DNA from: Octopus sinensis | Lineage: Eukaryota | Reading direction: 5' to 3' | Assembly (NCBI RefSeq): GCF_006345805.1 | Contig: NW_021836172.1 | Coordinates: 6,197 to 70,196 of the forward strand | Length of the DNA: 64,000 nt | In this document: piece after piece, positions 12,601 through 44,475 of the stretch | Layout: the number at the start of each line of letters is the position of its first letter | Numbering within the stretch: position 1 is the first letter of the stretch | The notes under the pieces: model-generated | What the model was told of the DNA's origin: nothing | The model's database searches: none | The model's input: only the letters and a program-made list of their open reading frames with translations | Program-made: the position numbers and the translations under genes

Positions 12601-15600
12601 GTCCCCTAAAGAAAACGGATAGAACATGCTTTCTGTGTAATGTCCCAAGAAGATTTTATATATTTTTATATATTTTTATATATTTTTATGTATTTTTATA
12701 TAATTTTTATGACGAAAAATGCGAGCGATGTATAAGTACGCAGGCAAAGCAGAGTTATAACAGAGTAATTTCCCTTCATTTTTAACGGTATTTTTTCATA
12801 ACGTTTTCAAATAGCCAGATAACCGAAGAGATGGTGTTGTGGATTTCCACTTCGGCATCTGAAACTCAGAGTTTTATCTTGACTACCGAGTAATGTAACA
12901 TATTGTATATATATATATATATATATATATATATATATATATATATATATAATATATATATATATATGACTATCCCTAGTCTCAACAAAAATTGTTTAAC
13001 ACGCAAATTCACATAAAGAATCTTGCAAGCCAAATACAAAACGAAATATATGTATGGCGATCGAGCTAAATCTGCCAATTTTCATAAAATGGAAAGGAAA
13101 GTACAATATCCTTTCCAAATATTAAAGTATTTTCAAAACTCAAAACAATATCCACAAGGTTATGGCTAAAAAGTAATAGTTTACTCCAAGTACCCATACT
13201 CAGTTCCCACCACGGTCGCGAGACACCTCCGGAACCTGACAAATGCGTTTCTTACCGGGTTCCTGGTTTTTGAAAACCTCTCTAATCTTAGCAACCAGCT
13301 CAGCCTTGCTCCTACAGGCAGGCAGGTAGGCAGGCTGATGTCTTTCTCAACCTGACCCACACAGGTCAGAAATTGGGGTTAATGAAATTAAATTCTCTAA
13401 CAATATCTTCTGACTCTTTTCCAGGGATTTTCCAAAGGGCCGCGTCCTGCTGCCACACTTATTGCCTTACAGCAGCTATCCTTCCCGGTAAGTAGCCTTT
13501 TTCGAATTCAGCTTAAGACTCTGTTCATAGGTTAAACTATGACACAGGCCCAAGAACAAGTGGCTGACAACAGGGGAGGATGCAGGGCTACACCTCTTTC
13601 AATGTGTTTGGGTGACAGTACAATATAGACAATGGTAACGAGGTGACAGGGTGTGCCATCAAGGTAAGACGAAGGTAAGTATAAAACGGAACAGGGGAAA
13701 AGAATGCGTAGTGAGTAAAGAGAATGGCAGGGGGTAAAGTTGGGACAGGAGGTGAATTGTGGGAGTGATGAAAAGAGACAGAGGTGTGGTTCACAGTAAA
13801 CGTCATTATGGAGCAGAGGGGGTTGCTGAGAGACAGAAAGACAGAGAGAAAAAGAGGAGAGAGAGAGAGAAGTGGTTCAAGAAGGAGGAAGTGATAGTGG
13901 TGGCACAAGAATCATGGTGAGTTGATACATATATATGTGGAAGCACTCCGTCGGTTACGACGATGAGGGTTCCGGTTGATCCGAATCAACGGAACAGCCT
14001 GCTCGTGAAATTAACGTGTAAGTGGCTGAACACTCCACAGACACGTGTACACTTAACGTAGTTCACGGGGATATTCAGCGTGACACAGAGAGTGACAAGG
14101 CCGGCCCTTTGAAATACAAGTACAACAGAAACAGGAAGTAAGAGTGAGAGAAAGTTGTGGTGAAAGAGTACAGCAGGGATCACCACCATCCCTGCCGGAG
14201 CCTCGTGGAGCTTTAGGTGTTTTCGCTCAATAAACACTCACAACGCCCGGTCTGGGAATCGAAACCGCGATCCTATTACTGCGAGTCCGCTGCCCTAACC
14301 ACTGGGCCATTGCATGGCCCAGTGGTTAGGGCAGCGGACATGGTGGTGATCCCTGCTGTACTCTTTCACCACAACTTTCTCTCACTCTTACTTCCTGTTT
14401 CTGTTGTACTTGTATTTCAAAGGGCCGGCCTTGTCACTCTCTGTGTCACGCTGAATATCCCCGAGAACTACGTTAAGGGTACACGTGTCTGTGGAGTGCT
14501 CAGCCACTTACACGTTAATTTCACGAGCAGGCTGTTCCGTTGATTCGGATCAACCGGAACCCTCATCGTCGTAACCGACGGAGTGCTTCCACATATATAT
14601 GTATATATATATATGTATATATATATGTATATATATATATATATATATATATATATATATATATATATGTATATATTTATATATATGTATGTAAATACAC
14701 GTGTGTGTTGTGTGTGTGGAGGCGCAATTGCCCAGTGGTTAGGGCAGCGGACTCGCGGTCGTAGGATTGCGGTTTCGCTTCCCAGACCGGGCATTGTGAG
14801 TGTTTATTGAGCGAAAACACCTAGGAGCTCCACGAGGCTCCGGCAGTGGGGTGGTGATCCCTGCTGTACTCTTTCACCACTATTTCTCCCACTGTTTCTT
14901 CTCTTGGCCTGCTCGGTTACCCAGCGGGGTGGCGTTTTCGAACGCATTATGACCAGTGATGTGTAACAACATCTAATGGTCTGGTCGGTCACGTGATCAT
15001 GATATATATATATATATATATATATATATATATATAATAATAATAAATATTAGGGAATATATCCAAATTTACAGGGAAAAAAAATCAGATTTGGGATTAA
15101 ATCCAATTTTATAGTAAAATATTATAAAATATTATTTGAGACAAAACCACTATTTTGCAAAAAAACAACAAGGAAAGACTTAATCAATACATAAAATTTA
15201 ATAAATAGTCAAAAAAACCGCCACTACAATCGTTTCTTGTCTTGATCGACAATCTTCAGGTGGACTTCCAATCTAAAAATCAAAATTTTAAATATAAAAA
15301 TAATAATTTTAAATAATTAAAGTATAAATGAAAAAATATAAGTATATAATCCATATATAACCTATATATAATCCATATCGAAAATATAGACAAATTACCA
15401 CGAATTCCCTAAAAAAAAAAACCATGATAAAACAAAACTCTTAAAAACATATAACGATAAAATCTCCCTTTGCTAAACTCTATAACAAACCTATAAAGTA
15501 AACCCCCTAACCTAAACATTCACACACAAATACACACACGTAAACCACAGACTCACGACTTATACACATACCTAGATAAATCTAATTGTATATTAAATAA

Positions 15601-18600
15601 TAATTGTGATATTAACGATGTAGTGTATAAATGTATAGTTACATTACATGATAATAACTTTAAGAATAATAATTACACAAAAGCGGTTTATATAGGTTCT
15701 ACTTCCTCAAAAATAAAACTAAGAATTGCACAACATATGAATCTTTTAAAAATAAAAACTTAATCAATTCAACCGGACTTAGTAAGTATATTTGGAGTCT
15801 TAAATCACTAAATATTAATATAGTTTAATATGGGAAATAATTTGTAAAACTAAATCATATAATATAGGAGCTAATTGTTGTTATTTATGCTCTAATGAGT
15901 TTAAAGAAATTTTATTTTATAAGTATGATAATTTACTTAATACTGGGGAGGAGCGCAAAATAAAATGTAGACACAAGTTACTTTACTTATATAATAAGTT
16001 TCATGATAAATAGCAATAATAGTTCCCTTTTAGGTTATTTTAGTTTAGTTTAAATTAGTTTAGATGATATATTGGTTATGTTGTCTAGGATTTAATTATA
16101 GTTAGTCTTTATTGATATTTCTTTGTTTTAATTAGTTCATTTTTAATGTATATTAATTTAGCAGTTTATGGTACGTTAAAACTTTAATAATTTATATTAG
16201 ATTTTTTTATTTTTTATTTTGTATTTTTATTTATTTTATTTTATTATGTATTTTTATTTTGCATTTGTTATATGTATTTTGAGGATATATTTTATATGGT
16301 TTGGGTGTTATTTAGTGGTGTTTTATTGAGTTTTGTATGTATGTGTGAATGTTTAAGATCCCTTTGTTTTTTGTTTTTATTTGTATGTTGAATTGACAGA
16401 TTTTATTTGGGTATTGTCTTTTATAATAAAGTACACACCCATAACAATTATAAGTGCCCACTTCATTCGTTGTACTTGGGTTTGCATGTGAGCCTCAGCA
16501 TATGCACCTAACGGCCACTCCAGCCCCACATGGATAAATAAACACAACATCCCCTAAATAATAAAAAAAAAAAAAAAAAAAAAAAATGGGAGTAATCCCA
16601 TTCACACCAATTATTTGTATACAATTATACACACTTGAATAATACATATAGCCCTAATACCCATACATACAACATACTAATAATCCCAACTAACCACCAT
16701 CACAAATGAAACCCACACCCATACAATGACAAAACTCCCCCATACCCTATTTACACCTACATAGTAATCTTAATATATTCTTCCATACATGGACGCAAGT
16801 GCGTGAAGCACATGAACATAATTAGTACGTACAACCCCTAATGCACACTAATATATACGTATCAAGCTCGACCTCCACAGTGATAAGTTTACACAATCAC
16901 ACCCAGATGGGTGAATTGCACAACCAGTGAATGCTCACACATACGGGCGCGATTACATTGTTGCATATATCGAGCCAAAATAGTATGCATATGTACATGT
17001 GAGGGGTACACGTAAATGAAGTGAGCGTGTACCCCCTGTATTTATACCCGTGCGTGAATATACACATGGAGACTACCACACAGGTACAAATGTGTTTAGA
17101 AATGGGAGCCCCATCACTACACTTAATGTATACTCTCACCCATCCGCACGGATGTGTAAGTGTATCTCCGGTGTATATGTTGAGGCTTATATTTAGAGTT
17201 ATTGAAGGGAACGTCGTTGAAATTGTGAATGAATGGGTAGAGTTGGGAATTGTAACCGGGTGGTGGACTAGTGTTGTTTGGAATTGTGAATGGATTAGGG
17301 TGGTAATGAGGTAGGCATTGAGTATGGGTTACTGTAAGTTGTTTGTTAGAGTTACTAGGGTGAGCTAAAGCTCATAAATGTATATAATTGATTTTTCATG
17401 ATAGTTTTTAAAGAATCCATTCATAATAAATTTTTTTTAAGTAGCGTTGGTTTGCTACGTGTAAATAGTTTTTAGTTCCATTTATTATATTTCTCCATTC
17501 ATACTATGAATGACGTTTACTTTCTATGGCGCGTATTCTTTTTTTACATTAGTTATTTCCATGGTAACGTAATTTTGTTTGGTTTTTTAACGGTTAAGAA
17601 TCTAATTTCACTTCATAATTTGTAACTGAATTGTAAGTATGTATTTGATTTATCCTTATGTCATAATATTATTTTTGATATTCTGGTTAATTACGATGTA
17701 TTTATTGTTGTTTTCATAAGAGTGTTATGTATATGAGATTGGTTGTGAGTTTTTAATTGTATAATTAATTTATTTATCTGTATGAGTGTGGGTGTAAATA
17801 TTGTTGTATATATCGAGTTTTAGTGAGTATGTATATGCGTATATGTGAGGGAGCATATGTATCTGTTGTGTGTGTGTGTTTTGGCGTGTGTGTTGTGTTG
17901 TGTGTGAATGTGTATTTGGGTTTGTTATTTAGGATTTGGGATGTATGTGTTAATTTGTCTGTGTGGGGAGGGAGTGGTTTTTGGTGTATATTGAGGTTTA
18001 TAAGTTAGTATAGGTATGTGTATAAGTCTTGGGTCTGTGGTTTACGTGTGGGTTTTTTGTGTGTGAATGTTTAGGTTAGGGGGATTGCTATATAAGTTTG
18101 TTATAGGGTTTAGCAAAGGGAGATTTTATCGTTATATGCTTTTATGAGTTTTGGTTTATCATGGTTTTTTTTTTTAGGGAATTCGTGGTAATTTGTCTAT
18201 ATTTTCGATATGGATTATATATAGGTTATATATGGATTATATACTTATATTTTTTCATTTATACTTTAATTATTTAAAATTATTATTTTTATATTTTAAA
18301 ATTTTGATTTTTTAGATTGGAAGTCCACCTGAAGATTGTCGATCAAGACAAGAAACGATTGTAGTGGCGGTTTTTTTGACTATTTATTAAATTTTATGTA
18401 TTGATTAAGTCTTTCCTTGTTTGTTTTGCAAATAGTGGTTTTGTCTCAAATAATATTTTATATATATATATATATATATATATATATATATATATATATA
18501 TATATATATATATATATATATATATATATATATATATATATATATATATATATATATATATATATATATATATATATATATATATATATATATATATATA

Positions 18601-44350: not shown

Positions 44351-44389
44351 TATATAGATCAAATTAAGCAACAGAACATCAAGTAATAA

Positions 44390-44475
44390 TGCAGTCTGAA
44401 CGTTTCAAGCAGCTCCATTTAATTGAACAATGCAATCATTACCTTAATTTAAATATAGAACTATCTTCGGCTGTA
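44390..44475 (-). ncRNA. Decayed hammerhead, same family as 38113-38200
   Basis: tacag CCGAAGA tagttc..gagctgctt GAAA cgttcaga ctgca. Confidence 0.4.

Follow-up and report, generated by a model that had tools for sequence, protein, structure and literature searches.

We analysed a 64,000-nucleotide stretch of the Octopus sinensis genome (RefSeq assembly GCF_006345805.1, contig NW_021836172.1, positions 6,197 to 70,196 of the forward strand), henceforth referred to as the window, in which several families of repeats carry hammerhead ribozymes (HHRs). The most informative is a protein-coding Penelope-like element (PLE), here called family A, which accounts for two of the seven HHR motifs reported in a preliminary description of this DNA. 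PLE retrotransposition is poorly understood. We compared the window repeats with their copies in the 2.72-Gb genome and conclude, with a probability of roughly 0.7, that intron-less family A copies arranged as head-to-head mini-palindromes record one sense, uncleaved RNA that was reverse-transcribed twice from two internal sites, and that the HHR motifs of the window are independent PLE and retrozyme-like insertions.

The window copy of family A is a 5'-truncated insertion at 15002..18460 on the forward strand, with an inverted 5' arm and (TA)n runs at both ends. Self-BLAST aligns 15002-15574 with 18579-18011, and the two arms are 315 and 2755 nt long. The HHR of the inverted arm (15221..15263, reverse strand) precedes a long 3' end, with a predicted GUA cleavage site at 15225 and a TA run 188 nt past it. 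The second HHR (18325..18367, forward strand) precedes a short 3' end, with a predicted cleavage site at 18363 and a TA run 95 nt past it. Both motifs (15259 and 18329) belong to 3' pseudo-long terminal repeats (pseudo-LTRs) of the coding element. The GIY-YIG endonuclease end of the family A open reading frame (ORF) lies at 15626..16010 on the forward strand, broken into three frames that match the 580-amino-acid ORF of another copy (L052) at 95-100% in tblastn. Further along the same strand, a 23-nt exon 1 (17610..17632) is followed by a GT-AG intron within the pseudo-LTR (17633..18315), which is 683 nt long here and ~1.3 and ~1.8 kb in other copies. Exon 1 begins at an initiator-like A that would mark the transcription start. 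The family A HHR has 1,725 exact 33-mer copies genome-wide (control 0).

In other copies the GIY-YIG remnant continues into ORFs that also encode a reverse transcriptase (RT). Tandems of pseudo-LTR, ORF and pseudo-LTR occur at four loci (L054, L055, L066 and L067), with HHRs ~5.72 kb apart and the first ATG ~270 nt past the HHR core. A single ORF with RT and C-terminal GIY-YIG is found in family A (580 amino acids, L052) and in family F, a second coding family of the window (543 amino acids, L058), and the two RTs are 36% identical. Pfam support is weak (GIY-YIG at E=0.008 for F, none for A). Both proteins have the CxCX5C linker, the CxxC and CxH motifs around the E and N residues, and no CC pair in the GIY-YIG core, as described for Hydra-clade PLEs (Craig et al. 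2021, PMC8557442). The DKT motif of that clade is present in A and could be read in A only, the available F ORF being 5'-truncated; in place of the RWK of the published description, A reads RIKWK. Craig et al. report (TA)n targets and canonical HHRs for the Hydra clade, and HHRs, (TA)n targets, an inverted 5' copy and a tail at one end are likewise shared with our elements. Assigned by protein motifs and targets, A and F would be Hydra-clade PLEs; no named Hydra reference was among the best 120 of 1,176 homologues. Three features set them apart from the clade as described: the family A unit is ~5.7 kb, compared with generally <3 kb; the tails are ~85 nt in A and ~70 nt in F, compared with 30-40 bp; and A has a 0.7-1.8-kb pseudo-LTR intron and ~1,400 spliced retrocopies.

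Two further features of family A were noted. The ORF (L052:3739-5478) has an asparagine-rich insert between RT and linker, and comparable inserts have been described in rotifer Penelope ORFs (PMC3846280). In some subfamilies (L215, L207) the promoter and exon-1 unit is tandemly duplicated, 0.8-1.2 kb apart, and the donor GT is often GA in one of the two.

The short copies of family A lack the intron. The 13 nt before their HHR core are joined to sequence from 683 nt upstream, and the skipped piece (17633-18315) starts with GTAAGT and ends with a pyrimidine tract and AG. This junction has 1,405 exact genomic matches (control 0). Exon 1 ends and exon 2 starts with the same trinucleotide, ATT; because both are retained, the junction is not a microhomology deletion. 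Three exon-1 variants were found both spliced and unspliced, and tail variants match in three of four spliced classes. At one locus (L180) the next GT, four bases on, served as donor in both arms.

We sampled 20 stretches containing 21 divergent pairs, 70-105 bases apart, and 20 single family A sites. The samples come mostly from contigs C1-C2 and from top-scoring matches, and the assembly has small indel errors. Fifty-seven spliced arms were measured. All 50 that were sampled regardless of 5' length hold at most 23 nt of exon 1, and eight hold exactly 23; the remaining seven were picked deliberately as exceptions and reach 31-98 nt or more. Genome-wide, 658 matches include the 7 nt upstream of the A at 17610, and among the 100 listed seven, from three loci, are spliced. 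In 4/4 family A tandem copies the ORF is still preceded by the intron end. We also overlaid four contig sets on L067:6750-9250, which showed no join spanning the intron and hardly covered the ORF; with an exon 1 of only 23 nt and contigs blind to starts, this overlay neither supports nor refutes the splice.

Many spliced arms form head-to-head mini-palindromes between (TA)n runs, and their 3' ends follow a strict rule. Family A arms end ~+131 or ~+215 nt from the core, at AT-rich sites that abut (TA)n, and every close pair (25/25) combines a short with a long arm. Over all pairs this holds for 34/37 in A and 11/13 in F, where the ends are at +83-89 and +156. Of the five exceptions, four run off the edge of the sampled sequence and the fifth is an internal tandem unit; one counted short and long A pair (L067) is also edge-limited. 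Inverted arms of families B and D end early as well, at query positions 371 and ~226. The two arms of a pair resemble each other: a three-state tail base is common to both in 21/21 pairs, differences average 0.76 within a pair compared with 1.75 between pairs, and rare junctions are common to both arms at L177 and L180.

Such concordance would also be expected if a single complementary DNA (cDNA) of the spliced sense RNA folded back on itself, and the centre junctions, with overlaps of 0-6 nt and some perfect palindromes, fit that route too. Fold-back, however, works only if the short-ended arm extends no further 5' than its long-ended partner. Among the 25 close pairs the long-ended arm reaches further in eight and the short-ended in seven, with ten ties; among 14 large pairs the greater length belongs to the short-ended arm in nine and to the long-ended arm in three, and two are equal. 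The window copy is itself reversed (315 versus 2755 nt). Pairs in which the short-ended arm reaches further cannot arise from a single folded cDNA, and we regard this route as unlikely.

A smaller chance still attaches to the possibility that the minis are a self-propagating non-autonomous family, similar to miniature inverted-repeat transposable elements or to retrozymes, descended from one old deletion. Their copy number is high, and genuine tandem retrozyme-like families do exist in this genome (D, H and the array at L289). One deletion does not account for GT-AG excision in three exon-1 variants that match unspliced parents, nor for palindrome centres that vary between copies, and the sampled minis are not head-to-tail repeats.

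The preliminary description had proposed that all its motifs belong to non-autonomous, ribozyme-bearing retroelements that prefer the sense strand of a receptor gene and form a meaningful cluster, a view that we consider highly improbable as a whole. It draws on families D and H, which are tandem non-coding units, on the lack of an ORF for B and C, and on the 0 strict motifs in 200 kb of large chromosomes. Against it, A and F are coding PLEs, and the two family A motifs are a single insertion. The receptor strand is set by an adhesion-type receptor GPS exon at 10442-10660 (reverse strand); 8/11 motifs lie on this strand (p=0.23), as do 5/7 single-direction insertions (p=0.45), so the claimed preference is not supported. 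In 40 control stretches of 10 kb, a strict descriptor found 10 motifs at 6 loci, nine of them on contig C29 (14 stretches) and one on C25; the first 20 stretches, taken from large chromosomes, had none. The window has 4 strict motifs at 3 loci, compared with 9 at 4 loci in those 140 kb elsewhere on C29. Its HHR density is thus typical of C29 and above that of large contigs. C29 holds near-identical copies of the window region. The insertions also differ in age, with identities to other copies of 72-79% in H, 84-89% in E, 87-90% in B and 99-100% in F. We conclude that the cluster carries no functional signal and that its motifs are independent insertions of at least seven families.

We give almost no weight to the hypothesis that PLEs copy an antisense template by self-priming, which was proposed to explain intron retention and head-to-head repeats (PMC3846280): long copies do retain the intron (93 among the 100 listed), and it could still hold for them, but in the minis the intron is excised at a sense-strand GT-AG in both arms and the 5' ends stop at the sense initiator-like site.

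These observations are best accommodated by twin priming on a single sense RNA, with intron retention as a by-product and spliced mRNA retroposed only as leader palindromes; as a general account of PLE insertion we hold this to be probable, by a modest degree. The PLE protein would nick both strands of a (TA)n target, and each nick in this self-complementary sequence would prime a single shared sense RNA at one or the other of two sites. The priming sites would lie in the 5' untranslated region (UTR), at ~+131 and ~+215 in A and at ~+83-89 and +156 in F. Both cDNAs would then be extended 5'-ward, stop independently and be joined head to head. Because the priming sites on spliced mRNA are 170-250 nt from the cap, spliced mRNA would yield only dead-end leader palindromes. 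Copies that carry the ORF would need unspliced read-through RNA extending as far as the start sites in the downstream pseudo-LTR, and would keep the intron for that reason. The significance of intron retention in PLEs is called unknown in Craig et al. (PMC8557442), and twin priming offers a mechanical alternative to the selective account of PMC2377424.

A biochemical parallel is the green anole PLE Poseidon PAc (Frangieh et al. 2024, PMC11167929). In vitro this element nicks and extends both target strands, uses uncleaved RNA and starts RT at two internal sites, one at each end of the tail; it is predicted to be a dimer. Judged by their insertions, families A and F would likewise have two internal start sites bounding a tail; they differ in that these lie in the 5' UTR, 70-85 nt apart. 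The main text of that paper makes no mention of splicing or inverted pairs.

Several observations weigh against the twin-priming account or limit it. The model leaves the unspliced state of the read-through RNA without explanation. Spliced copies that pass the start site exist (at least 81 nt at L212, 98 nt at L214 and 31-35 nt at L213), which indicates that the intron is sometimes removed from longer RNAs. No spliced form was present among 100 listed matches of family F or in the few pairs read of families B-E, and the splice evidence therefore rests on family A. Variants shared between arms could also come from bursts of one subfamily. The start site and splice of A are read from DNA copies, and its cleavage is predicted. 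Finally, the ribozymes of A and F lack the usual G10.1-C11.1 pair and that of F also carries U4C, so both may cleave poorly.

The ribozymes have three helices with covariation. Stem I forms 4-5 bp within each of seven families (A-F and H) and ≤2 bp in 40/42 cross-family combinations, pairing across families only in the similar B and C; because the families were chosen by motif, this test is partly circular. The core boxes CUGANGA, GAAA and UH are canonical in A, C, D, E and H, and families B and F carry U4C, reported to be a natural variant of lower activity (PMC3088659). U4C is fixed in three unrelated families (window 12823 and 19477, and L289), including the youngest, F, in 44/44 copies. 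Short helix I, long helix II, a palindromic loop 3 suited to dimers, opposite-strand motifs 100-700 bp apart and an intron 3' end close to helix I are features that our motifs share with metazoan PLE minimal type I HHRs (Cervera and de la Pena 2014, PMC4209133). Unlike those, ours have U4C fixed in B, F and the L289 array, and position 10.1-11.1 pairs as U-A in A, with a mismatch or bulge there in B, D, E and F. The stem III loops of A, C and F pair as dimers (-7.8 to -12 kcal/mol) and not as monomers, and the ribozyme probably works as a dimer through this loop. Self-cleavage is predicted and, under the proposed mechanism, would not be required for insertion. The 5' ends do not pile up at the cleavage site, neighbouring positions having similar numbers: among the 100 listed out of 216 non-intact copies, four start clearly at the site and five ambiguously so, beside at least 1,725 intact ones, which speaks for an uncleaved template. 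Our guess is that the ribozyme trims tandem precursors or destroys surplus mRNA.

HHR-bearing Hydra-clade PLEs and retrozymes are known kinds of element, and the HHRs of the window and their density are ordinary. What is new is the spliced leader palindromes under a strict short and long rule. A literature search without Repbase and supplements turned up no account of PLE copies that are spliced or lack an intron, or of these ribozymes in cephalopods; a prior mention of such copies is possible. Family A provides hundreds of natural insertion products that separate models of PLE template polarity and intron retention. It is young, with 98% identical copies and long open ORFs, and yields direct predictions for an in vitro system. 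If twin priming is correct, the leader palindromes, with at least 1,400 arms genome-wide, are records of where the mRNA starts and of its splice isoforms. They also call for caution: HHR pairs found on opposite strands of an animal genome may be mRNA leaders that were retrocopied.

At the level of single motifs the preliminary description is partly confirmed. Hammerhead-family sequence is present at all seven sites, in five families as it said, and the reading as TA-anchored, PLE-type type I hammerheads with covarying stems is borne out. Six of the seven have (TA)n 37-231 nt past the cleavage site, the exception being 44470. The strict descriptor, which had 0 matches in 40 local shuffles (relaxed descriptor, 0 in 100), passes three (15259-, 18329+ and 21059-) and rejects the other four, which are decayed or variant. 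At 24127 (reverse strand) the core and stem I are intact and stem II is decayed; 19477 (forward) has the family-wide CCGAUGA core, with G occupying the cleavage position and stem I disrupted; at 38194 (reverse) the first stem I pair is broken; and 44470 (reverse) has a CCGAAGA core and GA instead of UH. In other genomic copies the fold is restored, scored as core boxes plus stem I ≥4 bp in unique copies, in 14/19 for A, 11/24 for B, 9/17 for C, 14/22 for D and 12/24 for E. An Rfam scan of the window gave 88 matches at E≤5, mostly microsatellite, and no hammerhead family. Further CTGANGA sites (33164+, 32657+ and 39819- among them) were rejected because they have no stems.

Family F is represented by the GIY-YIG end of a putative Hydra-clade PLE (12296..12619, forward strand; one stop codon, 99% to the L058 ORF) and by an HHR that had been overlooked (12818..12878, forward strand; CCGAAGA core, TA run 32 nt past the site), which belongs to the 3' pseudo-LTR of the coding element. 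The HHR has 2,371 pattern matches (control 1), and the GIY-YIG remnant continues into RT-bearing ORFs elsewhere. Inverted pairs and tails are present in F as in A; in the loci examined, no F copy formed a tandem with a second pseudo-LTR upstream. Three remnants had been named as traces of the mobilising proteins. The one at 15615 is indeed inside the family A element, that at 12300 belongs to this separate F insertion (HHR at 12823), and the RT remnant at 61385 has no similarity to family A or F proteins in tblastn. Adjoining F insertions at L058:6503-7852 and L060:91-1572, we observed long open ORFs of a second PLE type, with a YLDD RT, a CxxxxCxxC linker and GIY-YIG.

The suggestion of retrozyme-like repeats was right for family D and applies also to family H, which had been missed. 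H is a partial tandem at 11164..11696 (reverse strand) with two decayed canonical type I HHRs (11635-11684 and 11291-11337, cores 11679 and 11332), a unit of ~400 nt arranged head to tail and a canonical long stem I; unit plus permuted flank was found in most of 10 loci mapped. A GIY-YIG match near H in L260 was rejected as its partner because a (TA)n run lies between them. D is a partial tandem of a ~480-nt unit (23850..24626, reverse strand; HHR 24076-24132), with a unique direct repeat in 5/20 loci. Nested in it is another overlooked feature, a core-truncated, head-to-head F-like HHR palindrome (24204..24366). D, H and the array at L289 consist of non-coding units repeated head to tail, every unit carrying a single type I HHR, and resemble in this the metazoan non-LTR retrozymes (PMC7229834; bioRxiv 10.64898/2026.07.22.740005), which D and H appear to fit. 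Unlike those retrozymes, D, H and the 546-nt unit of L289 have PLE-type inverted 5' arms; these arms, plus the (TA)n ends in D and L289, tie their insertion to PLE machinery.

Families B (19306..19744, forward strand; decayed HHR 19473-19524, CCGAUGA core, ending at (TA)n) and C (20795..21286, reverse strand; intact HHR 20974-21063 with a long stem II) are 3' fragments. Neither has an ORF within 0.7-0.9 kb of shared upstream sequence, their parent elements were not found, and tblastn beside B, C and D gave no attached ORF. Family E has one copy at 38082..39606 (reverse strand; HHR 38114-38199), interrupted by another repeat at ~39058-39295, and a more decayed copy at 44346..44564 (reverse strand; HHR 44390-44475) with no TA run; a GIY-YIG remnant lies ~1.3 kb upstream in 1/7 extended loci (L247). 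B, C and E show variable 5' truncation to 0.7-1.4 kb, with no loop-back seen. First-look genomic candidates numbered 4,428 for B, 775 for C, 3,032 for D, 2,854 for E and 1,034 for H, and 40 per family were scored. In family E a tract resembling a 3' splice site runs up to the HHR core and ends in AG (38199-38215, reverse strand), and in family D a GTAAGT stands ~60 nt upstream of the ribozyme (24132-24200, reverse strand). These are possible introns abutting helix I; the few loci read gave no spliced copy.

Outside the window, contig C29 has a young retrozyme-like array (L289:5900-9300) of five near-identical 546-nt units with CCGAUGA-core HHRs. It ends in (TA)26 and is headed by an inverted partial unit, a PLE-type insertion signature. 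Four more HHR families, with distinct stems and a palindromic loop 3, occur in control stretches (L288:7450-8600, L290:616, L291:1054 and L303:7869); L288 combines an inverted pair and a partial tandem.

As for the setting, parts of the window are 96-100% identical to C29 at 3.10, 3.35 and 3.48 Mb, which on sequence identity points to a recent segmental duplication or haplotype copy. Local TA density was rejected as a cause of the HHR density (3.4 runs per 10 kb in the window, 7.4-7.6 in controls). Adhesion-type receptor exons extend across 7700-36100 on the reverse strand. A SINE-like (short interspersed element) repeat at 13925-14604 has an inverted duplicate (98.9% over 265 nt), and a 43-bp satellite occupies 53733-60366 (154.7 copies, 98% identity). 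The RT remnant mentioned above (61332-61867, with YVDD; RT at 61385-61867) is of another PLE-like clade and is headed by a 75-nt fold-back hairpin (61332-61406), and a 240-nt hairpin element lies near TA runs at 62255-62495.

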